Shown here piece after piece: positions 1 through 26,800 of a DNA stretch of 58,723 bases. The position numbers and the translations under genes were made by a program. A model generated the notes under the pieces. It was given only the letters and a program-made list of their open reading frames with translations, did not search any database and had not been told where the DNA came from. Source of the DNA: a virus (lineage: Duplodnaviria > Caudoviricetes); IMG/VR virus record IMGVR_UViG_3300045955_000216, positions 1 through 58,723 of that record; one strand, given 5' to 3'. Positions within the stretch are counted from its first letter, which is position 1, and every line of letters begins with the position of its first letter.

Positions 1-127
1 CCGGCGGCTCGGCCGCGTGGACCTTCCGGATATGCCGGGCGCGGGCCGGCCCGTGCGTGATCCGCGCGCATTCCCCGCACCCTGGCCGAGGCGACCACTT
101 CCCCGCTGCTCGTGTCATCCGCGGATC
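1..127. repeat. Terminal direct repeat, copy 1 (circularity/assembly overlap)
   Basis: 1-127 identical to 58597-58723. Confidence 0.95.
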
Positions 128-229
128 CTTCTGGGCGACCGGCCCGTCCCCCGTGAGGACGAGCGGCACCGTGCCGGGCGTGACCTCGATCCCATGCGCG
201 AGCCACTGATGCTTGGCGAGGTCGGCCAT
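1..229 (-). CDS. 5' part of a hypothetical protein spanning the circular junction (continues as 58454-58714)
   Basis: ATG at 229 gives MADLAKHQWLAHG..., in frame with MTRAAGKW... CGEC...H...H. Confidence 0.5.
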   Translation of the reverse strand, partial: MADLAKHQWLAHGIEVTPGTVPLVLTGDGPVAQKDPRMTRAAGKWSPRPGCGECARITHGPARARHIRKVHAAEPP

Positions 230-410
230 CGACGACCACGGGCCCGGGGCGGGGCACTTCGCGATCGGACAGCGGATCCCCGGTGCGATGGCGGCGCCTC
301 CCTCTGCCCGGCGGCCGCCACCGCTGGTAGGCGCCCCTCTTCTACCACGCTAGCCCCGGTACCTGTCAACAGGTTCGGACGTCGCTGGTCCCATCGCGGG
401 AGGCCAACCA

Positions 411-439
411 TTGACCGAAGCCGTTTCGCGTGCTATAAG
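411..439 (+). promoter_or_regulatory. sigma70-type early promoter
   Basis: TTGACC-17 nt-TATAAG with extended -10 TG; inverted repeat ACCTGT-CA-ACAGGT at 361-374 upstream. Confidence 0.8.
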
Positions 440-547
440 TTCTGACGTGGGAACGAGGACGCTCCGAATGCTCTGGCTCCGATGGGTGGTCGAGATGCTG
501 GCGGCCGCGGGCCTCGAGCTCGGCGGCTGGAACGAGGAGGTCTGACC

Positions 548-775
548 ATGACGCTGACGGCGGCCCTGGACGCGGCCACCCCGTTCGGCCTGGGCTATCG
601 GGTCGCGACGGCCTACGACGTGGCGCACGACGAGTACCTCGTGGCGCTCCGGACGCCCGACGAGCGGATCCGGGTCCGACTCTTCACCACGCACCCGGCG
701 GACAAGGGCTTCGCGGTCGAGCTGGCCGAGGCCCTCGAGATCCCCGTCCGGTGGACCCCGGAGACGGAGGGCTGA
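548..775 (+). CDS. Hypothetical early protein
   Basis: GAGGAGG RBS before ATG 548; first gene after promoter. Confidence 0.7.
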   Translation: MTLTAALDAATPFGLGYRVATAYDVAHDEYLVALRTPDERIRVRLFTTHPADKGFAVELAEALEIPVRWTPETEG

Positions 776-777
776 CC

Positions 778-1530
778 GTGATCTACCTGACTGGCGTGAG
801 CACCCCCGAGACGCGGCGCCTGCGGCGCGCGGACCTGGGGATCCTGGTCACGCCGGACACCGCCCGCTCGTACCGCCGCCACCTGGCCGACTACCCGGCC
901 GGCTTCGGCGTCGACAACGGCTGCTTCACGAACCCGGACCGGGACTTCGAGGCCTACCTCCGCTGGGTCGACACGCTACCCCGCGCGGCCTGCCACTTCG
1001 TCGTGGCGCCCGACGTGGTGGGCGACATGGCCGCGACCTGGACGCGGAGCGCCCCGTACCTGGCGCGGATCCGGGCCCTCGGGTTCCCGGCCGCCCTGGT
1101 CGTGGGCGACGGCCTGGTCGTGCGGTGGGACGGGCGGACGCGGACCACCACGGTCGAGCTCCCGGACGGGACCCCGTTCCCCTGGGACGCCGCGGACGTC
1201 TTCTTCCTCGGCGGGTCGACCGCCTGGAAGGTCTCCCTCGAGGCCGGCCGCTTCACCGACGAGGCCGTCCGGCATGGGAAGCGCGTCCACATGGGCCGGG
1301 TCAACAGCTTCGAGCGGCTCGAGCTCGCCGCGATCGCGTGCGCGACGGCGGACGGGACCTTCCTGGCGTTCGGGCCGCGCGCGAACCTCCCGCGGCTGCT
1401 CGAGTGGCTGGACGCCCTCGAGTGGATCGAGCCGGGGATGGGCCGGCCGCCGGAGCGGATGACGGCCCGCAACATCGTGCGACACGCCGCACCCTCACGT
1501 TACGCCCTGCCCCGAAAGGAGGCCGCATGA
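778..1530 (+). CDS. TGT/DpdA-like TIM-barrel protein (putative base-exchange enzyme)
   Basis: Motifs VDNGCF, APDVVGD, FLGGSTAWK, VHMGRVNS, ADGT parallel the TGT-family motif order. Confidence 0.5.
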   Translation: MIYLTGVSTPETRRLRRADLGILVTPDTARSYRRHLADYPAGFGVDNGCFTNPDRDFEAYLRWVDTLPRAACHFVVAPDVVGDMAATWTRSAPYLARIRALGFPAALVVGDGLVVRWDGRTRTTTVELPDGTPFPWDAADVFFLGGSTAWKVSLEAGRFTDEAVRHGKRVHMGRVNSFERLELAAIACATADGTFLAFGPRANLPRLLEWLDALEWIEPGMGRPPERMTARNIVRHAAPSRYALPRKEAA

Positions 1531-1745
1531 CCCCCGAAGATCGTCTGGTACTCCACTACGGCGACGTCCGCCTGGTCCTCACGCGACGGACCCTGAGCCG
1601 GATCGTCACGTTCCTCGGGGCGCTCGCGCTGGAGGAGCCAGGGCTCGACGTCTGCGACTCGAACACCGGCTTCAACACGAGCTACCGGGATTGGGCCCGC
1701 GAGCTCCGCGCCGAGATCCTACCCGACCGAAAGGAGGCCGCGTGA
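1527..1745 (+). CDS. Hypothetical protein
   Basis: AAGGAGG RBS, ATGA coupling. Confidence 0.7.
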   Translation: MTPEDRLVLHYGDVRLVLTRRTLSRIVTFLGALALEEPGLDVCDSNTGFNTSYRDWARELRAEILPDRKEAA

Positions 1746-1763
1746 CGGCGGTACGCCCCGGGC

Positions 1764-1791
1764 TTGACGAATCCGATTCGCGTGCTATAAG
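1764..1791 (+). promoter_or_regulatory. Second sigma70-type early promoter
   Basis: TTGACG-16 nt-TATAAG; shares TTCGCGTGCTATAAGT with the 411-439 promoter. Confidence 0.8.
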
Positions 1792-1815
1792 TCTAGTGGG
1801 AGAAAGGAGGGCGTC

Positions 1816-2184
1816 ATGGGCTGGGACTTCGCGAAGGGCGCCACGAAGGCGGACGTCGTGGCGGAGGTCGCGGCCGGCTGGACGGGGACGCGCTGCCTCC
1901 GGCACACGGTCAAGGGGCGGGTCGTCTGGGCGGTGATGGAGACGACGCACCCAGACCGCGTCGAGCGGTGGATCCGCTGCACGCTCCTGGACACCGCGCG
2001 CATCCACGGCGAGCTCTGCTGGGGCCGGAAGGACATGGACGAGACGATGGGCCCGTTCTACTACGACTGCCCGCTCGAGTACCTCGCGCTGGCGCCGGAG
2101 ACCAACCCCGCCTGGCGGGCGAAGGTCCTCGCGCACCACGGGGTCGCGGCGGTGCCGCCCGTGACGGCGGAGCTCTTCGCATGA
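1816..2184 (+). CDS. DUF6927-like protein
   Basis: MGW start and WGxKDMDETMGPFYYDCP...WR motif; AAGGAGG RBS. Confidence 0.65.
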   Translation: MGWDFAKGATKADVVAEVAAGWTGTRCLRHTVKGRVVWAVMETTHPDRVERWIRCTLLDTARIHGELCWGRKDMDETMGPFYYDCPLEYLALAPETNPAWRAKVLAHHGVAAVPPVTAELFA

Positions 2185-2375
2185 CCGCGCTCGAGCTGGT
2201 CCGCGCGGTCGGCCGCCGGGCGGTGGTGACGACGGCCGAGCATCTCGCCATCACGGTCCGGATCCTCGACGGGAAGGTGAGCTATGGAACCCCGCGGTTC
2301 CTGGTGACGCCGCTCGCCGGCGCCGGGACCGCCTGGATCAACGCCGACCGGCTGACGCTGGAAGAGGAGGGCTGA
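2181..2375 (+). CDS. Hypothetical protein
   Basis: ATGA coupling, high GC3. Confidence 0.7.
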   Translation: MTALELVRAVGRRAVVTTAEHLAITVRILDGKVSYGTPRFLVTPLAGAGTAWINADRLTLEEEG

Positions 2376-2378
2376 CCA

Positions 2379-2633
2379 ATGAAGGTCTGGGTCTACCGCG
2401 AGGCAAAGGACGGGATCTGGTGCGGGGAGTGCGTCCGCGAGGTCCCGGGCCCGGACGACCCGCCGGCCCTCGCCGAGCTGCGCGCGATCGAGCTCCCGCT
2501 CCGCCCGCGGAACCGGGTCCTCGACATCGCGCTCGGCCGGCTGGCCTGCGACGCCTGCGGCGGCAACCTCGAGGACCTCGAGGCGGAATTCGCCGCGCAC
2601 CCGAAGCTGGCGACCGTCAACCCCTACCTGTGA
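2379..2633 (+). CDS. Hypothetical Zn-finger protein
   Basis: CGEC and CDAC; GGAGG RBS. Confidence 0.7.
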   Translation: MKVWVYREAKDGIWCGECVREVPGPDDPPALAELRAIELPLRPRNRVLDIALGRLACDACGGNLEDLEAEFAAHPKLATVNPYL

Positions 2634-2645
2634 GGAGGGCGGACC

Positions 2646-3407
2646 ATGACGCGGCGTGAACGGCTCGAGGCCCGGATCGAGAAGCGGGCCGAGTGGGCGG
2701 ACAAGGCCCGCGCCCGCTCGGATGCCCGCTTCAAGACGGTTCGCACGATGCTCGACATGATGAACGGGAACCCGATCAAGGTGGGCCATCACTCCGAGCG
2801 GGGCCACCGGCGGGACATCGCCCGCGTCGACGCGAACATCTCGAAGGGCGTCGCCGAGGGGAAGCTCGCCGAGCTCCACACCAGCAAGGCCGGGAACCTC
2901 GAGGCCGCGCTCGAGCGGACGATCTTCTCGGACGACGCGAACGCGATCGAGGCCCTCGAGGCGAAGATCGCCGAGCTCGAGGCCGAGCGGACCCGGATGA
3001 AGGCGATCAACGCGGCCTACAAGAAGCGGGACGCCGGCAAGCTCGCCGAGTTGGGGCTCACGCTCGAGGCCCTCACGGCGAAGCTGGCGGCCGCCGGCCC
3101 TTATTGGGGCGACCGGCCGCACCTCCCCTATGAGCTCACGAACCTGGGCGCGCGGATCCGGGACGCGAAGGCCCGGATCGAGGAGATCCGGCGCCGGACG
3201 GCCCGGAACGAGCGCGCCGAGGCCGCGCCCGACGGCGTCCTGATCGAGGGCGCCGACTACGTCGCGGTCACGTTCGCGGAGAAACCCGAGCGCCGGATCC
3301 TCGAGGCCCTCAAAGCCGCGGGGTTCCACTGGTCCGGCGGCTCCTGGTGCGGATACCGTGCGAAGCTGCCGGCCGAGCTCGCGCCGGCGGAAGGAGAGAC
3401 GGCATGA
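2646..3407 (+). CDS. DUF3560 domain protein
   Basis: RRERL...PIKVGHHSERGHRR signature. Confidence 0.85.
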   Translation: MTRRERLEARIEKRAEWADKARARSDARFKTVRTMLDMMNGNPIKVGHHSERGHRRDIARVDANISKGVAEGKLAELHTSKAGNLEAALERTIFSDDANAIEALEAKIAELEAERTRMKAINAAYKKRDAGKLAELGLTLEALTAKLAAAGPYWGDRPHLPYELTNLGARIRDAKARIEEIRRRTARNERAEAAPDGVLIEGADYVAVTFAEKPERRILEALKAAGFHWSGGSWCGYRAKLPAELAPAEGETA

Positions 3408-3865
3408 CGACCACCGCCGCCCCGATGGTCCGCACCTGGACCAACGTCGGGATCCTCCACTCTGAGACGCCGGAGCTGCGCGCCCGGCTCGAGGGGATGT
3501 TCGATCGGCTCCCCTGGAAGCGGTACACGCCGGGCGCCGAAGAGGCGATGATGCCGGCGCTCGGGATCCGCGCCGCGATCAACGAGCTCCGGATCCCGCG
3601 GGTCAGCCACTACGCGATCTCGAATGAGCTCGCGCCCTACGGGCTCTACGCCATCCGCGGGCACTTCCTCAACGGGCGCGTCGACGTGTACCTGGTCGAC
3701 GAGGGGAGCTCGCTGGTCGTCCTCGCGTCCGACCACTGGCCGGGCTGCACGACGCCGACCCCGATCGGCGAGTACGGCGCCACGGTCCCCTGCGGCGAGA
3801 CGGTGGCCGTGCCGGGCCGGAAGCCCTTCGCGCGCCTGTGCCCGCTCTGCCGGGGCGAGGGCTGA
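3404..3865 (+). CDS. Hypothetical protein
   Basis: ATGA coupling, RBS; C-terminal Cys cluster. Confidence 0.7.
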   Translation: MTTTAAPMVRTWTNVGILHSETPELRARLEGMFDRLPWKRYTPGAEEAMMPALGIRAAINELRIPRVSHYAISNELAPYGLYAIRGHFLNGRVDVYLVDEGSSLVVLASDHWPGCTTPTPIGEYGATVPCGETVAVPGRKPFARLCPLCRGEG

Positions 3866-3867
3866 CA

Positions 3868-4095
3868 ATGGACGCCAAACTCGCCGCGCTCTACGGCACC
3901 GGCATGAGCCGGCTCCTCAAGGTCGCCGTCATCCGGGATCCCACGGTCCCGCCTGGCGCCCCCGCGCCGCTCTGGCTGAACTGCCCGTGCGGCGCCAAGC
4001 CGGCGACGACCTGGAGCGGGCCGCCGATCCGGTGCGCCTGCGGGGTGGTCTACAGCCGAACGGGCCGGGTCCTGACCCGGCCGACAGGAGCCTGA
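3868..4095 (+). CDS. Small Zn-ribbon protein
   Basis: CPCG...CACG. Confidence 0.6.
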   Translation: MDAKLAALYGTGMSRLLKVAVIRDPTVPPGAPAPLWLNCPCGAKPATTWSGPPIRCACGVVYSRTGRVLTRPTGA

Positions 4096-4096
4096 C

Positions 4097-4309
4097 ATGG
4101 CCTGGGCCGGCGAGGTTCACTTCATGATCGGGCGGTACTGGAAGAGCTTCGGCGTCCCCCCGGAGAAGACCGACCTTCCCGGGACCGCGGCGAACCGCGC
4201 GATTACCGCCGCGCGGCGCCGCCTCCCGAAGGGGACGCGCGTCGAAGAGGTCCGCGTCTACTTGCGCCGCTACACGCCGGCGGCCGCCGAGTCGCCGAAG
4301 GAGGGATGA
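4097..4309 (+). CDS. Hypothetical protein
   Basis: AGGAG RBS, operon context. Confidence 0.6.
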   Translation: MAWAGEVHFMIGRYWKSFGVPPEKTDLPGTAANRAITAARRRLPKGTRVEEVRVYLRRYTPAAAESPKEG

Positions 4310-4563
4310 TGGGCGCGCACGACGTCCGGAACCTCCGCTACTGCGACACCTGTCATGCGCTCGGCTGGAAGGACGAGTTTCTCGAGGACGGACCGCGGCG
4401 CGAGAAGCGGCCCTCCATCTGCGTCGCGTGCGCCTACAAGGCGGCCGGCAGTCTCGAGGCCTTCACGGCTCGATATGACCGCGCCGAATGGGGGAAGCTG
4501 CCCCTGGATCTGATCGGGGGCGACGCCATGTCACGGCTCCTCGACCTCGTGAAGGGGGGATGA
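4306..4563 (+). CDS. Hypothetical Zn-finger protein
   Basis: CDTC...CVAC; coupled starts. Confidence 0.65.
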   Translation: MMGAHDVRNLRYCDTCHALGWKDEFLEDGPRREKRPSICVACAYKAAGSLEAFTARYDRAEWGKLPLDLIGGDAMSRLLDLVKGG

Positions 4564-17391: not shown

Positions 17392-18593
17392 GGGAGCGGC
17401 GGGATGGGCGGCGGCGGGAGCTTCTCGGCCTCGGGAAGAAGGAGCGCCCGGGCCGCGTCGCCCTTCGTGTTGTTCGTCTGCGTGCCACAGCCGCTCTTGA
17501 GCCAGATGTCGTTATACCCGCCGCTCGGGAGCAGATTGCTCACGACGTTGTTGCGGTAGAGGTTGTCGTGGCACCCGGTCTGCCCGGTCTTGTAGAACGC
17601 CCCGAGCCCGATGTTGCCCGTGCTGAGTGAGGGGAGGTTGGTGTCGAGGACCTTGTTTTCTTCCACCAGCGCGAAGGCCGCGTTCGAGGCGTTGAAGCCG
17701 CACTGGCTGGTCCGCACCATCACGTTGCGGGCCACGTAGATGTGCGCGGCCGACTCAAAGGCGACCCCGCACCCGCTCGCCGCCCGGCCCCCGATCAGGT
17801 AGTTATCCGTGATCCGCGCGTGCGCCGAGTGGCCGACGTTGATCGCGTCCTCCTGGCCGGCGCCCCCGTTGTGGACCTCGGTCTCGGTGTTCGCGTAGTA
17901 GTTCCGGTCCGCGACGCACCCCCGTTCCAGCGGGCCGTTCTGATTGCACCGCCAGAACTGGACATGCTGCCCGCGTGGAAACGGCCCCTTCGGGTTCTCG
18001 GAGTAATTGCCCTTCACGGTGACGCTCTGGCAGTCCATCGCCTCGACGCCGGTCTCGAAGTCGCGCAAGATGTTGCCTTGCACGAGGACGTCCGCGCAGG
18101 CCGTCGCGAAGACGCCATGCTGCGAGTCGAGCGTCGTCTTCGTCCGGCGCGGGACCAGGAGGCTATTCGAGACCCGGATCCGCGCGGCCTGGTCGATCCG
18201 GATGGCATGGCCGCCGCACCCCTCGAGCTGGACGTCGTGGATGACGACGTCGGTCACGCCCACCACCCGGATACAGTCGCCGGGCGCGCCCGTGATGCGG
18301 ACGCGCGTGATGGTCTGGCCGCTGGTCGCCACGAGGGGCCCGCTCGGCGTGTAGTCGGGCGGCGGGGGAGGCGGTGGAGGAGGCGGTGGGGCCTCGAGCG
18401 CGGCGACCCGCGCCCGGAGGGCGTCGAGCTCCTGGTGGAGCGTCTCGAGCCGGGCGTCCAGCGCGTCCAGGCGGGCGACCAGGGCGGCCACGGCCGCAAT
18501 CACGGCCGCGTGGTCCTCCTGGGTCGGGACCGTCACGACCGCGTGCGCGGTCGTCGCGAGGAGGCAGAGGCCCAGCCCGAGGCGTCTCAGCAT
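17379..18593 (-). CDS. Secreted right-handed beta-helix protein (depolymerase-like)
   Basis: Signal peptide MLRRLGLGLCLLATTAHA, coiled coil, poly-Pro linker, V-x-x-N beta-helix repeats. Confidence 0.7.
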   Translation of the reverse strand: MLRRLGLGLCLLATTAHAVVTVPTQEDHAAVIAAVAALVARLDALDARLETLHQELDALRARVAALEAPPPPPPPPPPPDYTPSGPLVATSGQTITRVRITGAPGDCIRVVGVTDVVIHDVQLEGCGGHAIRIDQAARIRVSNSLLVPRRTKTTLDSQHGVFATACADVLVQGNILRDFETGVEAMDCQSVTVKGNYSENPKGPFPRGQHVQFWRCNQNGPLERGCVADRNYYANTETEVHNGGAGQEDAINVGHSAHARITDNYLIGGRAASGCGVAFESAAHIYVARNVMVRTSQCGFNASNAAFALVEENKVLDTNLPSLSTGNIGLGAFYKTGQTGCHDNLYRNNVVSNLLPSGGYNDIWLKSGCGTQTNNTKGDAARALLLPEAEKLPPPPIPPLPWVP

Positions 18594-19207
18594 TTTCGCA
18601 CCAGGAGCCGAAGCGCCTCGCGGTCGGCGTCGCTCGGCGTCAGGTCGTAGAGGACGAGCATGATCGCCCACCGCTGCCCGTAGTCGCAGGACGCCGTCCC
18701 GTCCCGGGGCGGCACCCATTCGGCAGGCCCCTTGCTCCCCTTGCTGCGGTTCACCGCGGCGATCGTCGCGGCCAGGGCGCCGGGGTAGCCGAGCTCGTTG
18801 GCGAAGGCTCGCTTCCGCTCGGTCGACCACGCGGCGCCGCCGTGGGCATGGGCCCAGGCGAGCGGGACGACATGGTCGATGTCCAGATGCGCCGGATCCG
18901 TTCGGCGCTCGCCGGTGTAGGGATCCCGCCAGAGACCGCGGCGGACCTTGCAGCCCTCGTCGTCCCAGACCACCGTCCCGGGGAAGGCTTCCCGCGCGAG
19001 GACCTCCTGGCGCGTATCGCGGCAATTCCCGTCGGCATCCTCCCAGCGGGGATGCCACTCCTGGCGGTCATAGGCCGGCGCCCCGGCCAGCACGCGCGGC
19101 AGGCGGTCCGCCCCCCGCGCCACCCCGTGGATCGCCAGGATCCACAGGAAGAGCGCGAGGAGCGCGACGATGAGGGTCCAGGTCGCCGGCCCGAGCCGCT
19201 GGGGCAT
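18587..19207 (-). CDS. Exported/membrane-anchored HNH nuclease (DUF1524-like)
   Basis: N-terminal hydrophobic helix; DPYTG, DIDHVVPL, NRSKGSK. Confidence 0.8.
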   Translation of the reverse strand: MPQRLGPATWTLIVALLALFLWILAIHGVARGADRLPRVLAGAPAYDRQEWHPRWEDADGNCRDTRQEVLAREAFPGTVVWDDEGCKVRRGLWRDPYTGERRTDPAHLDIDHVVPLAWAHAHGGAAWSTERKRAFANELGYPGALAATIAAVNRSKGSKGPAEWVPPRDGTASCDYGQRWAIMLVLYDLTPSDADREALRLLVRKC

Positions 19208-20131: not shown

Positions 20132-20581
20132 TCACGCGCGGACCTGGAGGAAGGTGTGTCGGCCGATCGTGGCCGTTACCTTGCTCGGGTCCACCTGGGT
20201 CGGGTCGTGCGGATGGGCGGCCCACGGCGGGAGTCGGCCCGCGTCGCGGAGGACCGTCTCGACGTTCAAGTAGTGGTCCGCCCCGTGGGTCGGATCCGGC
20301 AGCATCCGGAGGAGCGCCCCGCAGGCCGCCCGGTAGCACTCGTGATAGACGTCCGGATCAAGCCGATCGAGCGTCAGCCGGCGCGGGCTGTCCGTGTTCC
20401 ACGCCGAGAACTGCCAGGCCTTGAAGACCACGTCCTGGACCGACTCCCGCCAGCGGGCGCTCCGGTTCGCGATGACCCAGGCGACGGCGAGCTTCCCCTC
20501 GGGCGCCTCCCCTTCGGCCTCGAGGTACACGGTGAGCGCGCACCAGGAGAGGTCGTCGACCATCGGGATCCGCGGGCTCAT
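20132..20581 (-). CDS. Endolysin, SleB/Hydrolase_2 cell wall hydrolase
   Basis: EAEGE..GKLAVAWVIANR, QFSAWN, DPTHGADHY, IGRHTF. Confidence 0.9.
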   Translation of the reverse strand: MSPRIPMVDDLSWCALTVYLEAEGEAPEGKLAVAWVIANRSARWRESVQDVVFKAWQFSAWNTDSPRRLTLDRLDPDVYHECYRAACGALLRMLPDPTHGADHYLNVETVLRDAGRLPPWAAHPHDPTQVDPSKVTATIGRHTFLQVRA

Positions 20582-20802
20582 CGCCGGCGCCCCTCGCGAA
20601 ACTCGCGGCGCATCTCCTCGACCGCCCTCGCCAGCCCCAGCATCGCCTCGACGAGGGTCGCCAGCTTGCCGTTCAGGCGCCAGAGAAAGACCCCGGCCAC
20701 CATCGCCGGAAAGCCGACCGCCTGAAACAGGTACACCGCCCACCGCAGGCTCGAGGGAAGATCCTCGGGCGCGTCGATCATGAGTGCTCCTGTATGGGAC
20801 AC
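20578..20802 (-). CDS. YvrJ-like small membrane protein/holin
   Basis: VGFPAMVAGVFLWRLNGKL. Confidence 0.6.
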   Translation of the reverse strand: MSHTGALMIDAPEDLPSSLRWAVYLFQAVGFPAMVAGVFLWRLNGKLATLVEAMLGLARAVEEMRREFREGRRR

Positions 20803-20859: not shown

Positions 20860-23800
20860 TCATCGGCCGAGGCGCTCCCGGACCCCGTCGAGGAGGTCCC
20901 CGCGGGCGTCCCGCTGGGCCCGATGGACGATCGACTGGATCTCGCGCTTCTGCTCGTCGCGATCGAGCGCCCGGTAGGCCGGATCCTCGAGAAGGCCCAG
21001 GAGGTCCTCGCGGGCCTCGGCACCCCAGGTCCGGTGGTAGAGCCGGCGCTCCCGCTCGAGGAGCTCCACCTTCTCGCGGTCGACCGTGAGGCTCCGGGGC
21101 GGTGCGGCCGGGACGTAGCCGACCCGGGCGAGCTCCCGCTCGACGGCCTTGTCCGGCCGGGGGGCGTTCCGCCGGATCGGCGAGACCATCCGCTCGAGCG
21201 CCGTCTCGCCGCTCGTGAGGGCGCCGCCGAGAGCCCCGCGCTTCGCCGGGAGCTGGTTCCGGAGGCCGGGGAGCTGGGCCTGCATGGCCGCCACCGGCCC
21301 CTCGATCTCGCGCTCGGTGTCGTCCAGGCCGCGGGCGATCGACCCGAGGAGCCCGCCGGCCGGGATCATCCCGCGCGCCTGGCCCTCGAGCCACGACTCC
21401 CCGTACCGGAGCGGATCCGCGAGCATGTTGGAGAGCCCGAGGAGCCCGCCCAGGAAGGTCTTGTTCGTGATGTTCTGGGCCACGGCCCGGAGCATCGCGT
21501 CGGCCTTCTGTGCCGCCTTCTGCTCCTCACCGCCCCGGGCGAGCTCGACGATGTCGGCCGCCATCCCGAGGAGCCCGCCCACCGGCTCGAGCCGGTTGTA
21601 GGCGAAGGACCCGACGCCCGGCACCGTGACGCTGTAGGGCTGCCAGCCGGCCTCGCGCTTGGTGCGGAGCGTGTCCCGGTCCTCGCCGCCGCCGCCGCCG
21701 GTGACGTACCCCGCGGCCGCCAGGGCACCGGCGGCCAGCATGACCATCGACCCGAGGAACGGCCGCGCCAGGTCCTCGGCGAGCGCGCGCGGGACGCCCC
21801 CGAGCTCCCGCTGGCCCTGGGTGTACTCGCCCCGCCGGGCCCGCATCACGACCGGCACGAACCCGAGCGGCGTGCGCTCAAGCGTGGCCTTCATGATGTT
21901 CGCCGGCGTCCGGACAAACGGGATGACGTACCGGAGGGCCGGAATGGTCTCGCGGCCCCAGAGGACCCACTGGCCCATCTTCCCGAGCTTCTGCTGGAAC
22001 GTCCGGTAGTCCTGGGCGCCCTGGGCCCGGAGGAGCATCCCCGGCGTCGGGTCGGCGATCAGGGCCGACATCCGCCGCGCGAGGGCCTCGCCCTGGTGGC
22101 CCTCTTGGAGCGCGATCCGGAGCGCGCCGGCGTGAATCTCCGCGTCCCAGACCATCGCCTTGAAGGCCGCGTCCTCCGCGGAGAGCGCCCGGAGCGGGGC
22201 CCGGATGACGCGCCCCGCGCGGCCGCCGATCGCCGGCGGGCGCGCCTCGACGCGCCCCAGGTCGGCGCGCGTCTCGAGCTGCCAGGCCGCGACGGCCTTC
22301 CCGAGGGCCCGGCCGCTCGTGAGCGCCGACAGCATCCCCGCGACCTCGGCCATCCCCTCGCGGGCGAAGACCTCCCGCTGCCGGCCGGTGAGCTTCGCGA
22401 GGACCGCGTCGATCCCGCCGGCCAGCGTCCGCTCCGCGGTGTTCGACGCCATGAAGAGGGTGTTCCCGATCATGTTGGCCGCGTGCGATTGCGGGCCCGA
22501 GAGGATCGAGGACAACCAGGCCTCATAGAGCTTGTCGGACCAGCGGCGCTCCTGGGCCTTCCGGAGGAACGACGAGAGGCCGCGCGTGTCGCCGTCCGGC
22601 AGCGCGGCCGCGAGCTCGAGGACCTCGAGCGTCCGGGCCCGGTTCCGCGCGCCCGTGGCCTCGCCGCGCTCGCCCGTGACGGCGCCCTCCCCGCCGAAGA
22701 GCTCGAGGGCCGCCTGGAGCGCCTTCCCCTCAAGGGGCTTTCCGGCCTTGGCGCTCTTCGCCAGGATCCGGTGCGCGGCGAGCGCGCGCGCGATCTCCGT
22801 CGTCGCCCCTTCGACCTCGCCCTGGAGCGCGATGTGCGCGGCGGCCGCGCGCGCGAAGCGGTCGACCAGGGCGTCGGGGATCGGCTGGCCCTCGTGCTGG
22901 AGGGTCCGGTACTCCGCCTTGATCCCCGCGAGCCGCTCCGCCGAGGCCAGGAGAATGTTCCGCGCCTGCGTGATCTGCTCGGCGTTGAGCGTCCCGCCGA
23001 GGACCCGCCGGCGGATCCTGCCCTCGTCGAGGCCCGCCTCGAGGGACAGCCGCTCGATCTCCTCGAGCGTCATCGTGCCGCGGCGCCGCTCCATCATATG
23101 CCCGTGGTGCTGCTGGTGGAGCTGCGAGTACAGGTACTTCACGTCGACCGCCGTATCGAGCCGGTCGAGGTTCGTGCCGGTGTCGGTGTCCACGCCGGCC
23201 CGGCCGGTGGCCCGCACGACGAGGTCCGTGTCCGACGCGGTCGCGGTGGGCGCGGCGGCGCCGACGCTGCGCGCCGGCGTGGCCGCGGCGCGCGCGAGCC
23301 ACTTGGCGTGGGCGCCGCCGAAGAGGGCCTCCGATTTCGCGATGTCGGCCGCGCGCTCGGCGCGCTCGGCGGGCGTCAGGGTCTCCACCTTGCGGCCACG
23401 CCACTTCTCGTAGATTTTCCAGCCGGCGTCCTGCACGGCCCCGACGTCCTGGCCGACGAGCTGGAGCTCGGCGATCAAGCCCGTCGGGAGCTCGATGGCG
23501 ACGTGGATCGCGCGGTAGCCGCCGATCTTCGGCTTCTCGAGAAAGTTTTCGATGTCGACGACCGGAAACTCCCGGCCGACGGCCTCGAGGACCCGCGCGG
23601 CGTCCCCGGGGGCGTCGATCCAGACCCGGCCGCCTAGGTAGTCGACCCAGGCATCGCCCGGACGGGCCTGGAGCTTCTCGGTAATCCGGTGCTTGGCGTC
23701 GCTCTTGACCCTGGGCGGGTAGCGGTCCGGGAACGTCAGCCCCGGGGTATCGACGGCCAGCCGCCGGAGGCGCTGCTCGTACTGTGGCCGATCGTCCTCG

Positions 23801-26800
23801 GCGCGGGCCAGGAGGGTCGGGACGTCCGCCGTGTCCTGGTACGCCTCATAGGTCGGCTCGGACGGCAGCGGCGCGGTGTTCGGGCGCTCCGGCAAGGTGC
23901 GGAGGCGTGTGCGCCCTGGGGCGCGGACGACCTCGGCCGGGTCGAAATTTGCTATACTTGGGTCGATGGAGCCCACCGTGGTCAAGGTCTGGGAGGTCGG
24001 CCGCGAGGACGGGGGCGGATTTATCCGCACCGTCGAGCTCTCGAGCGGCTCGGTTCGCGGCGAGGTCTGGTCCGCCGCGGCCAAAGCCTGGATTCCGGCG
24101 CCCGGCATGGACGCGGGCCGGATCTTCCGCGCCTCTCGGCCCTCCGCCGAAGAGCTCGCCGCCGCCGGCATCCCCGCCTGACCCTCGAGGCTCTGCCCGA
24201 CCCGTATATCGCCCTGGGCCGCCATCCGCTCGCGGAGTCGCTCCTGGAGCGTGGCTTCATCGGCGGCGCCCCGCGCGCCTTCCCGGGACACCCCGCGCGA
24301 CGCGACGTACTCGCCGGTCGCCGGCTTCCCGAACCGGACCGCGTACACGCTGACGTGGCTGCCCGTCTGGAGGTCCTTGTCGGCGGCCTGGACGAGGAAG
24401 TTTAGCGTCCCGCCGACCGTCCCCGCGTTCCGGCCGGCGAGACCGGAACCCCGCCCGCTGCCCACGCGGAAGACGAGGTCCTCGCCCGGTTCCGCCTTCG
24501 GGTCGCCGAGGTTCTCGACGAACGTGCGATAGGCCCCCTGGGGTCGGAGCTCCTCGAAGAGGTTGATTCCGCGGAGCGCCTGGTCGAGCGGGATCGTCGA
24601 GAGGCGCCGCTCCGTGTACGCGCCGCCCTCGGGGAAGTAGTACCAGCCGCCCAGCTTGAAGCCGACCGGCGGCCGCGGATCCTCTCCGCCCCGCGGTTCC
24701 GCCGCCCCGACCCCGCCGAGGTCCGGCTCCCCCGCCGTGCGCGCCGCGAGGTCCGCCGGCGCCCCGAAGAGGTCGCCCTGGCCGGCGGCCCGCGTGTCGG
24801 CCTCGTCGCGCGCCTCGAAGTTGAAGAGGTTCCGCTCGCTCCGCTCCGACTCAAGGGGCGGCTTCGTCGACCCCTTCCGGATCGGGCCCGCCGACATCTC
24901 GCGCCGCTCGGTGCCGGGCATGACGTACTGGTCGCCGGCCTCGGTCTTCTCGACACGCGGCGCGGCCGCCCCTACGCCCTCGAGCTCCGGCTCCCCGGCG
25001 ACGCGGGCGGCGAGGTCGGCAGGCGGAACCGCCGTGGCCGCTCGTCCCCGAGGGACGTCAGGTGCGGCATCGCCCGCCGTAGCTCCCGCAGGACGACCGC
25101 CTGGTCCGCCTCGGAGAGCTTGGGGTAGCGCCTTGCGGAGGGCGCTGTACGTTTGTTCCCGGACCGCATGGCGTCCCTCCCCGGCCGCGAGGCGCGCGGC
25201 CCCCTGGTTGAGCACGTCGGCCACCGGGCCTTGGACGTGCTTCAAGCGATCGAAGAGCTCGAGCAGGACCGCGGCCTCCTGGCTGACGCCCTGGCTCCGG
25301 GCGACGTCAATCACGTTGCCCTCGGCCTGGAGCCGCTGCGCCGCGCGTGACTTGCTGACGGTCGAGAAGAGGCGCTTGTCCTGCGAGAGCCGATCGCGAA
25401 GGTCGGCGACCAGCTTGGCCTTCTCGACGACGGCCGCCTCTTGGCGCGTGTCAGTCCCGAAGAGCGTCTCCTCGGTGACCGCGCGGGTCGGCGCCGAGGC
25501 CGCCATCCCCGCGAGCTCGGCGACGTCCTTGTCCCGGAGCGGCCGGCGCTTCTCGAGGCGCTCGAGGGCCTGGACGAGCTTGAGCTGCGCGTCTGGATCC
25601 TGGACCCGCTCCCCGATCAGGACCGCCCGCGGCGTGGAGAGCTTCCCCGTCTGGACGCGCGCGAAGACGGGCGCCGTCAGGTTCCCGAGCGCGAGGCCTT
25701 CGCGGACCACCGACTCGCGCATCGGGACGCCCTGGGTGCGGAGCGTCTCGGCCGTAAGCCCGGTGTCGCGGAAGAACTTCGCCGCGTCGAAGGCGGTGCC
25801 CCGGCCCTCGGCGATGTTCATAAGCGCGCCGACCGCGCGCGCCTGCTCGGCCGTCTCGGCCTCGACCTCGAGGACGGCGATCGACGCCGGCGCGGACGGA
25901 TCCCCCGCGGCCCCGAGCTCGCGCGCCTTGTTGACGCGGTTGTGGCCGTTGAGGACCTTGAGGCGCTGGTCCGCGGGATCCCGCCAGACGGCGACGACGC
26001 CGGCGAGGTTGGGATCCCACCGCCGGACGCCGGTCAGGCTGCCGGTGCTGCCGCTCTTCTCCCGGTTGGAGACCTTGAACTGGAAGCGGTCTGGCTCGAG
26101 GTCCAGCTCGGCGAGCGGCACCTCGCGGACGCGGGTCGGCGCGGCCTCGGGGCCGGCCTCCACCCGGAGCTCGGCCTCGGTGGGGCCGATCATCCGCGCG
26201 GTGCCGGCCAGCCGGAGGCCCTCGCGGACCAGCGGACTGTCGGGATCCACGCCAAAGGCGCGGAGCTGTTGCGGGCCGAGGCCGTACTCCCGGAAGAACG
26301 CGGCCGCGTCCTGGGCGGAGGTCCCCGTCGTGGACGGGCGGTCCACCGCGAAGCCCTGCTCGGCGCTCGCCTTGGGTCGGCGGTCGCGCACGAGGTTGTC
26401 GACGACCCCGAGCGTCCGGGCGGTCTCGGCATTCGGGGCCTGGAGGAACCGGACCCGGATCTGCGGGACCCCCTGGGACTTCGCCAGGTTGAGCCGGTTG
26501 TGACCGTTGATGACGTACACCTGCCCGTCGGCCGGATCCCGCCAGACCAGGAGCCCGTTCCGGTCCCGCGCCGGGTCGTACCGCTGGCGGGGGTCGAACG
26601 TCCCGCTGGCGCCGCTCTCCGTCTCGAGGCCCGCCAGCTTGAACTGGAACCGGCCGGGGTCGGCCTTGACCGATCCGGTCGGGAGGAGCGCCTGGCCGGG
26701 CTCGAGCGGGATCTCCCGCGACGGGATCTCGGAAATCCCCTCCTGGGACGCCGGGGCGGGCCCAGGCGCGCGATCGGCCGGAGGGGCCGGTATCTCCCCC

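Follow-up and report, generated by a model that had tools for sequence, protein, structure and literature searches.

What does a phage encode on the strand opposite its own giant structural gene, and can DNA that is read as a disordered linker in one direction be read as the gene for a folded protein in the other? The question is raised by IMG/VR record IMGVR_UViG_3300045955_000216, a phage genome of 58,723 bp that we analysed over its full length and refer to as the window. Here, an open reading frame (ORF) of 71 codons lies on the plus strand inside the minus-strand gene of a 2616-residue virion protein, under a Ser/Thr/Pro-rich linker and beside the segment that encodes a RelA/SpoT-like nucleotidyltransferase domain. 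We report that this nested ORF is in all likelihood a real protein-coding gene, that structural modelling makes its product a probable binding partner of the RelA/SpoT-like domain, and that the same models incline us, by a small measure, to read it as an immunity (antitoxin) gene for that domain.

The phage genome in this record is complete (100% by CheckV) and carries direct terminal repeats; GC content is ~72% along the entire genome, and a GGAG-type ribosome-binding site is clear at most of its genes. Because it encodes an integrase, a RecT-like protein and an exonuclease as well as a structural module (terminase, portal and major head protein genes), we take it to be a temperate phage. The initial annotation of the locus had called it a prophage, a term that does not fit a record that is not embedded in host DNA, an integrase gene being present all the same. 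The phage sequence occurs in soil metagenomes, and the distant relatives of its portal protein (24-26% identity) are podophages of Gram-negative hosts. The physical layout given by the initial annotation was recovered throughout: the giant ORF, the turn of its frame to a Ser/Thr/Pro-rich composition, the 71-codon ORF on the other strand, the -10 box before its ATG and the neighbouring RelA/SpoT-like domain all lie where they had been placed (Table 1).

Table 1. Coordinates in the window of the giant gene and of the elements at the nested antisense locus.
Feature	Position	Strand	Remarks
Giant ORF, 2616 aa	20860..28710	minus	Polyvalent virion or internal (ejected) protein; stop-free in the window and in its relative L001
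RelA/SpoT-like nucleotidyltransferase domain	23293..23850	minus	Giant residues ~1621-1806
Extended -10-like box TGCTATACT	23950-23958	plus	Ends 7 nt before the nested ATG; candidate promoter
Nested antisense ORF, 71 aa	23966-24181	plus	ATG at 23966, TGA at 24179-24181; candidate inhibitor gene
Ser/Thr/Pro/Ala-rich linker of the giant protein	23950..24181	minus	Giant residues 1510-1587

The nested ORF is contained in a longer, GTG-started plus-strand frame (23876..24181), and its start lies ~30 nt from the segment that encodes the beginning of the relatives' domain alignment, directly beside it. Its coding potential was scored with a codon model trained on 18 other genes, with the giant gene left out. 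The nested ORF scores 16.0 and ranks fourth among the 3119 open antisense windows of the same length and phase (99.9th percentile), and the giant's own frame scores only ~2 over the same segment, against a median of 32. That low-scoring or Pro/Ser/Thr-rich stretches yield good antisense frames automatically was considered and ruled out by the negative scores at other such loci: among 16 loci with a low sense score and four loci rich in Pro, Ser and Thr, the nested locus alone has a positive antisense score, the maximum being -3.0 at the 15 other low-scoring loci and -7.9 at the three other Pro/Ser/Thr-rich ones. The normal codon bias claimed initially for the ORF stands in part. GC at its third codon positions (GC3) is 0.889, a value that is partly forced and not independent, since these positions are shared with the giant frame, while the codon-model score is above chance. 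The linker, in which the Pro+Ser+Thr fraction of 71-codon windows reaches 0.47, has a composition like that of shadow translations of ordinary genes, and the best reading of it is that it is itself the shadow translation of the nested gene.

A second genome carries the same arrangement. The best library match to the giant segment is P0004 (1032 aa, 59% identity), located on the relative L001 (4611 bp), in which the giant frame is open over 2..4384, linker included. On the other strand L001 has an antisense ORF of 69 aa (1048-1257, minus) whose alignment with the window's ORF runs the full length and needs a single gap of two residues; it shares the ATG and the TGA of that ORF and is identical to it at 29 of 69 positions (42%). 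On another public contig a gene caller recognised this L001 ORF as well (P0154). Recurrence of ORF and promoter together in a homologue had been proposed from the outset as a check, and it is borne out by L001, which keeps the antisense ORF, its start, its stop and the TATACT hexamer. The antisense TGA can exist only where the sense codon ends in T, and both genomes supply a rare codon there, GGT in the window (2.7% usage) and CGT in L001 (2.2% usage). All indels between the two are multiples of three and the flanks stand in the same frame in both; one of them, a 78-nt indel (a deletion in L001), falls right past the nested stop, outside the frame constraint of the small gene.

The window/L001 alignment also allowed the substitutions to be read in both frames. 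Raw comparison of BLOSUM scores per site was tried and dropped as non-discriminating, and permutation tests conditioned on the nucleotide differences were used in its place. In the first null model the observed number of differences per codon position was placed at random sites (5000 permutations); in the second, stricter one the differing sites were kept and only the replacement bases were redrawn. Thirteen windows of 69 codons from the same alignment served as controls under both. Under the first null the nested segment has an antisense z of 5.0, reached by 0 of 5000 permutations, a sense z of 3.1 and a difference of antisense minus sense of +2.1 (P = 0.02), whereas the controls range from -0.15 to 2.39 in the antisense and from 2.6 to 5.7 in the sense frame, with a difference that is always negative. 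Under the second null the antisense z is 1.89 (P = 0.039; 2.24 in the beta-sheet part) and the sense z 0.60, against at most 1.05 and at least 0.98, respectively, in the controls, whose differences are again all negative. The nested segment is the one window in 14 in which the antisense frame, and not the sense frame, shows the more conservative substitutions. Selection on the two strands, another check named at the start, therefore comes out in favour of the gene: the antisense frame behaves as coding and the giant frame as its shadow, the reverse of the 13 controls. Within the limited power of one sequence pair, the pattern points to purifying selection on the antisense frame.

If the giant frame evolves like a shadow here and scores as non-coding, one could suppose that the giant ORF functions as a pair of genes, of which the first encodes the N-terminal polyvalent part and the second the RelA/SpoT-like domain with the C-terminal part, that the small opposite-strand gene simply lies between them, and that the open read-through is an accident of high GC. 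Existing gene calls agree with such a division: that of P0004 begins at L001 position 1286, directly after the box and linker, and that of a more distant relative, P0005 (222 aa), begins at the same boundary, which suggests that gene callers split such giant ORFs at the box. We give this idea hardly any weight, as neither genome has a stop codon, so that ribosomes coming from upstream must read through, and as the flanks keep one frame in both genomes with every indel, the 9-nt and 78-nt ones included, a multiple of three. It would, besides, alter only the label "nested" and leave the reading as toxin and inhibitor as it is.

The box before the nested ATG is unusual for this genome. Over both strands of the 58,723 bases, TGNTATAMT is matched by TGCTATACT alone (0.10 expected), which also holds the only TATAMT in the window (0.91 expected). 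The giant frame spells it as CCA AGT ATA GCA AAT, the sole run of five A/T-ending codons among 10,115 codons, and has to use two rare codons for it, AGT (2.7% of Ser codons) and ATA (1.1% of Ile codons). In L001, GCTATACT is kept on the same strand, 16 nt before the ATG, and the giant frame again reads the codons AGT ATA across it; the 9-nt difference in spacer length between the two genomes leaves the giant frame intact.

Several further observations concern the box, its surroundings and the promoters of this phage. Two early promoters on the plus strand (412-441 and 1764-1793) consist of TTGAC(C/G), a 17-nt spacer and TATAAG (TGCTATAAG), share an identical 16-nt block that includes a TG extension, and stand upstream of plus-strand genes at 548-775 and 1816-2184. 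They are probably duplicated or co-regulated, possibly with an operator in the shared spacer, and because both have this form we conclude that the host polymerase uses sigma-70-type promoters with a TG extension. TGCTATA occurs three times against 0.27 expected; this enrichment was rejected as evidence for the box, as it rests mostly on the two near-identical early promoters and shows the promoter type only. All four ATA codons among the 10,115 codons of 19 genes are in the giant gene (codons 640, 1502, 1563 and 1586), three of them in or right beside the nested ORF, and the one at 24206-24208, 25 nt beyond the nested stop, lies in another small AT-rich patch. Lastly, a 7-bp direct repeat, GGGTCGA (23939-23945 and 23960-23966, plus strand), flanks a 14-nt AT-rich insert that holds the -10 box. 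Repeat and insert together measure 21 nt, or seven codons; the repeat is absent from L001 and could be the trace of a small duplication or insertion.

The protein that surrounds the nested ORF has the marks of a polyvalent protein: a length of 2616 residues, a RelA/SpoT-like domain together with regions matching PHROG 21, 6651 and 2206, and a location in the virion module, where its gene adjoins those for portal, major head protein and terminase. As a whole it gives no Pfam match at E <= 0.01. PHROG places phrog_21 at residues 855-1176 (E 4e-71), phrog_6651 ("internal virion protein") at residues 2172-2532 (E 1.4e-29) and phrog_2206 ("virion RNA polymerase") with an E value of 7e-6. A word-based protein search with residues 1400-1830 returned the self-match only, tblastn with a 391-aa segment against 50,697 phage records gave no match, and scans of viral contigs with the giant segment, P0004, P0005 and the small-protein alignment as queries confirmed nothing. 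The 90% cluster of the giant protein consists of an identical full-length copy and a fragment, with zero variation within the cluster.

Its RelA/SpoT-like domain is recognised clearly by profile. As a single sequence it matches Pfam PF04607 at E 5e-4 and 20.8 bits, under the 27-bit cut-off; an exhaustive HMMER search finds 264 related library proteins at E <= 0.001. A profile built from 20 relatives (alignment A4), 18 of which match PF04607 themselves (best E 5e-12), was compared with solved structures and hits RelP, RelQ, RelA and Rel with E values from 6.6e-16 to 1e-6, the best being RelP (6fgk, E 6.6e-16) and the values for RelA and Rel lying at 1e-9 to 2e-11. Tas1 and Apk entries are not among the matches at E <= 1. 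R-x-K, D-x-x-G-x-R, G-Y-R-x-x-H and E-x-Q are motifs with assigned roles in RelA/SpoT homologue (RSH) synthetases. All are present in the domain, as R-V-K, D-Y-L-G-G-R, G-Y-R-A-I-H and E-L-Q; the 239-aa segment used for modelling (23221-23937, minus strand) keeps R76, K78, D99, G102-R104, G140, Y141, H145, E157 and Q159, which are mostly invariant or nearly so in the alignment of relatives and align with the same motifs of RelP. Judged by these matches the domain belongs to the RSH synthetase-fold nucleotidyltransferases (PF04607) and is a predicted enzyme, whose activity would be to transfer pyrophosphate from ATP to a nucleotide or to a tRNA 3' end, with (p)ppGpp, (p)ppApp or a modified tRNA as candidate products. 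RelA/SpoT domains in phage-type polyvalent proteins have already been described (Iyer et al. 2017, PMC5512222), and the domain is therefore another instance of something known from that paper.

The product of the nested ORF had been called globular-looking, an impression that modelling upholds. With an alignment of the two sequences, AlphaFold2 gives a predicted local distance difference test (pLDDT) value of 83.6 and a predicted template modelling score (pTM) of 0.70 (78.5-83.6 pLDDT over five models), for a four-stranded beta-meander with two short helices, whereas the control, the shadow ORF with the best score among those that share this antisense phase and can be aligned in both genomes without a stop, reaches only 56.7 and 0.23. 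The fold has no evident counterpart. Foldseek against the PDB returned nothing at E <= 0.001; its top entry, a three-strand piece that is chromo-shadow-like, covers 31 columns. The best Z that VIA-align obtained from 48,161 chains was 4.2. These results leave the small-protein family unmatched, though it may have distant relatives.

Complex formation was modelled between the 239-aa RelA/SpoT-like segment, with a 20-row alignment, and the small protein, in three runs and with three controls. The runs scored 0.74, 0.72 and 0.84 and the controls 0.06, 0.00 and 0.00, so that the check by complex prediction that accompanied the original proposal is passed, even when the 0.74 is set against the best control. 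The mark applied to this score is reached by 58 of 80 solved complexes and by 2 of 110 mismatched pairs, rates that are rough since custom alignments were used here. The partner's pLDDT was at least 88 and at least 67% of contacts were held in common between runs. On the domain side the predicted interface comprises residues 130-141 (the loop and the Tyr of GYRAIH), 83-91 and 175-199, and on the small-protein side residues 45-58 and the beta-sheet. As the small protein is without a solved relative, the pass is unlikely to be the recall of a known complex.

These results are consistent with the following mechanism, which we infer in part. The giant protein would be delivered into the host, where its RelA/SpoT-like domain would be toxic. 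The 71-residue product would fold as a small beta-rich domain and bind the RelA/SpoT-like domain encoded beside it on the other strand; binding would cover the face with the conserved GYRAIH loop, and inhibition would come about by occlusion, as with IapK on Apk2. Transcription of the small gene would start from its own sigma-70-type extended -10 promoter, which points against the late structural operon. Because of this opposition the inhibitor could be made while the late genes are silent, in a lysogen or in early infection, and it would shield the cell from the enzyme, be it leaky, self-made or incoming. The Ser/Thr/Pro linker would be what the giant frame makes of the small gene's reverse complement. 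Such an arrangement may, by inference only, go back to the fusion of two genes that had a small gene between them on the opposite strand, with a shadow frame that was open by chance. The full proposition, that one stretch of DNA does two jobs, as the linker of an injected giant protein and as a separately promoted gene for its specific inhibitor, is in our estimate evenly poised.

The nested gene could also be real and have another function. It may be an unrelated moron (for superinfection exclusion, lysogenic conversion or regulation) or a chaperone for assembly or packaging, with a position beside the domain that is incidental or that marks where the giant gene tolerates foreign sequence. 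The coding evidence is independent of function, the small protein is without similarity to any known antitoxin or immunity family, and the complex score is the model's own confidence; genes with their own promoter set against late operons are, moreover, typical of phage morons, which we count in favour of this alternative. We nevertheless consider it rather unlikely. The margin of the complex test is wide (0.74 against 0.06) for a small protein without a solved look-alike, the predicted interface falls on conserved catalytic-site elements and not on random surface, and a place adjoining the toxin segment is the rule for inhibitor genes in toxin-immunity systems, according to PMC12226406.

A number of points weigh against a functional inhibitor gene at this locus altogether, and we bring them together here with the alternative that they serve, namely that the antisense ORF is a non-coding shadow frame, that the TATACT patch is AT-rich by chance, in a disordered linker that evolves fast, and that the fold and complex predictions are false positives. 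At 72% GC an open antisense frame is uninformative by itself because open antisense windows are common: in the phase that shares third codon positions with the sense frame, 3119 of 8747 windows of 71 codons are open (36%), and at the nested locus all three plus-strand frames are. The ORF has its GC3 in common with the giant frame. Amino-acid identity is equal in both frames, 29 and 29, because first and second codon positions are shared in reverse, and conservation in the alignment is lowest in the nested segment, whichever frame is read; raw conservation is uninformative for these two reasons. The per-site BLOSUM comparison favours antisense over sense in 16 of 187 windows of 30 codons, codon-position mismatch rates of 0.42-0.46, 0.41-0.46 and 0.36-0.37 give the pattern of a most conserved second position in neither frame, and the difference between frames under the stricter null (z = 0.96, P = 0.18) is not significant alone. 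Only two lineages are known, the window and L001, so that all evolutionary tests rest on one pairwise comparison; the modelling likewise comprises one fold control and one complex test.

The promoter has weaknesses of its own. At least one TGNTATAMT occurs in 10 of 100 shuffles, which makes the box alone a modest coincidence; no match to a -35 element was found in the window or in L001, and the TG of the extended -10 is GG in L001. Spacing differs as well, and with it falls part of an initial claim. The leaderless geometry proposed for the nested gene exists in the window, with 7 nt between box and ATG, but L001 has 16 nt there, containing GGAG, which is a short-leader geometry; the leaderless form is therefore specific to the window. 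Leaderless transcription as such has a phage precedent in the lambda repressor mRNA made from PRM. No terminator-like site was found after the nested ORF.

Nor do searches with the small protein extend its family. It has no Pfam or PHROG match, a single-sequence search gave nothing at E <= 1, its two-sequence profile matched the L001 protein only, with no other homologue in the collections searched, and a protein atlas search was uninformative (best score 0.76). No paralogue was found in the phage's own genome. One further match, on bacterial contig L002 (58% GC), has a one-motif seed antisense to an unrelated 236-aa gene and was rejected as chance.

Ribonucleic acid (RNA) libraries are ambiguous. 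Metatranscriptome contigs from three of four runs cover the nested ORF (23957-24237) and its flanks; they are unstranded, may possibly derive from DNA carry-over, and fit a plus-strand transcript, the giant's mRNA or such carry-over alike. As to their ends, one contig begins at 23957, within the -10 box; a contig from run X20 and another from run X21 stop alike at 24201, which is 20 nt beyond the nested TGA, and that of the third run reaches 24237. The shared end is a weak hint, either of an RNA end or of a branch point between strain variants, and the 78-nt deletion of L001 begins close to the same position.

Even with all these points granted, a mere shadow frame seems distinctly improbable to us. 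It would have to account for a codon score that ranks fourth of 3119, for a locus that is alone among those of low sense score in having a positive antisense score, for a substitution pattern reversed in one of 14 windows under two nulls, for a start, a stop and a box kept through rare sense codons, and for a model of 83.6 against 56.7 in pLDDT whose complex test is passed. A coding gene for a small folded protein explains these together, and it is with this reading that we turn to known systems.

The closest of these is formed by the Apk2 toxins, MuF-fused (p)ppApp synthetases of temperate phages, and their immunity proteins IapK and Aph1 (PMC12226406; see also PMC5576092). In PMC12226406, Apk2, a RelA/SpoT-type toxin carried by a phage, is neutralised by IapK, which occludes its acceptor-nucleotide site. 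The likeness lies in a RelA/SpoT-type domain on a virion-associated protein, in a small protein gene right beside the toxin segment, in neutralisation through protein contact over the active site, which in our case is a prediction, and in lineage-specific pairs with fast-diverging inhibitors (35-38% identity among IapK proteins, 42% here). The differences are as many. No MuF domain was detected, the Phage_Mu_F model being absent from Pfam scans of the whole giant protein (E <= 0.01) and of five overlapping pieces of it (E <= 1), and the RelA/SpoT-like domain is internal to a 2616-aa polyvalent protein where that of Apk2 is C-terminal. Unlike iapK, which lies downstream on the strand of its toxin gene, the candidate inhibitor gene runs antisense within the very ORF that bears the toxin-like domain. 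The small protein is without similarity to any solved structure found, a scan of eight neighbouring ORFs showed no second immunity gene of the hydrolase type, and the domain is by sequence nearer to RelP/RelQ-type synthetases than to Apk or Tas1.

Toxic small alarmone synthetase (toxSAS) modules such as FaRel, FaRel2/ATfaRel2, PhRel and CapRel (PMC7229694 and PMC11782079) likewise pair a toxin of alarmone-synthetase fold with an adjacent protein antitoxin that binds it directly, as is predicted here. They are, in those texts, bicistronic same-strand operons or carry fused antitoxin domains, and serve cellular defence, whereas our domain is part of a phage structural protein and its candidate antitoxin lies on the opposite strand inside the same ORF. 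With the polyvalent proteins of PMC5512222 the giant protein shares its size and multidomain make-up, its place in the phage structural module and its predicted delivery with the DNA. The available text of that founding survey mentions no cognate inhibitor for any such protein, and the word "antisense" occurs in it 0 times. Antisense overlapping genes with experimental support are on record, for example in E. coli O157:H7 (PMC5810103, PMC4683798 and PMC9927249, in the parts available), and resemble ours as short ORFs fully embedded antiparallel in longer genes. Those are described as young orphans with no known link to the product of the host gene, whereas our small protein is predicted to bind the very product of its host gene.

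A partial precedent for the genetic layout can be added. The immunity genes of pore-forming colicins lie on the opposite strand within the colicin operon and have their own constitutive promoter. There, as in our proposal, a gene with its own promoter opposes an inducible toxin unit, and immunity is made when the toxin is not; unlike ours, those immunity genes lie between ORFs and do not overlap the toxin coding sequence. In open-access full text we found no protein inhibitor encoded antisense inside a toxin-bearing ORF, the yield being limited to RNA antitoxins that lie opposite toxin genes and to antisense overlapping genes that are unrelated. RelA/SpoT-type virion enzymes with small cognate immunity proteins are already known, then; what was not known before is the small-protein family itself and the position of its gene, nested antisense within the ORF that bears the toxin-like domain.

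Some features of the neighbourhood may be recorded for completeness. Directly downstream of the giant gene, on the same minus strand, are genes for a cell-wall hydrolase (20132-20581; Pfam Hydrolase_2, E 2e-13) and for a 67-aa YvrJ-like protein (20578-20781), the latter matched at 28.8 bits, slightly below the 29.5-bit cut-off; the pair is probably a lysis cassette. Further on, a 206-aa protein (18587-19207, minus) has a sub-threshold match to the GmrSD C-terminal nuclease domain (21.9 against 23 bits). Terminator-like hairpins number six between 20000 and 30000, against 1.9 expected, among them one at 25125-25148 (plus) inside the giant gene and one at 20691-20711 (minus) downstream of its stop. 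The giant protein itself contains two similar segments with a motif ending N-G-H-N-R, at residues ~700-740 and 890-930 (26100-26700 and 25700-26000 of the window, minus strand). We take them to resemble nuclease domains of the ParB/sulfiredoxin type, for which Pfam gave no confirmation; PHROG 21 alone gives a match in this region, at residues 855-1176.

If the proposed reading is true, the locus would be among very few antiparallel nested genes in a virus of prokaryotes whose product is linked in function, by prediction, to that of the host gene, and it would show one way in which a "disordered linker" comes about, namely as another gene's shadow translation. It also carries a warning for annotation, as gene callers miss such genes or split the giant ORF, which is what happened with L001. 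For the phage, toxin domain and immunity would be inseparable by recombination, forming one cassette inside a structural gene and staying invisible to gene callers. The candidate pair, a domain of 239 aa and a partner of 71 aa, is a clean test case for toxicity, rescue and binding. Nested antisense immunity genes may, if this one is true, be general, and may have been overlooked in the polyvalent and polymorphic toxin genes of high-GC phages.

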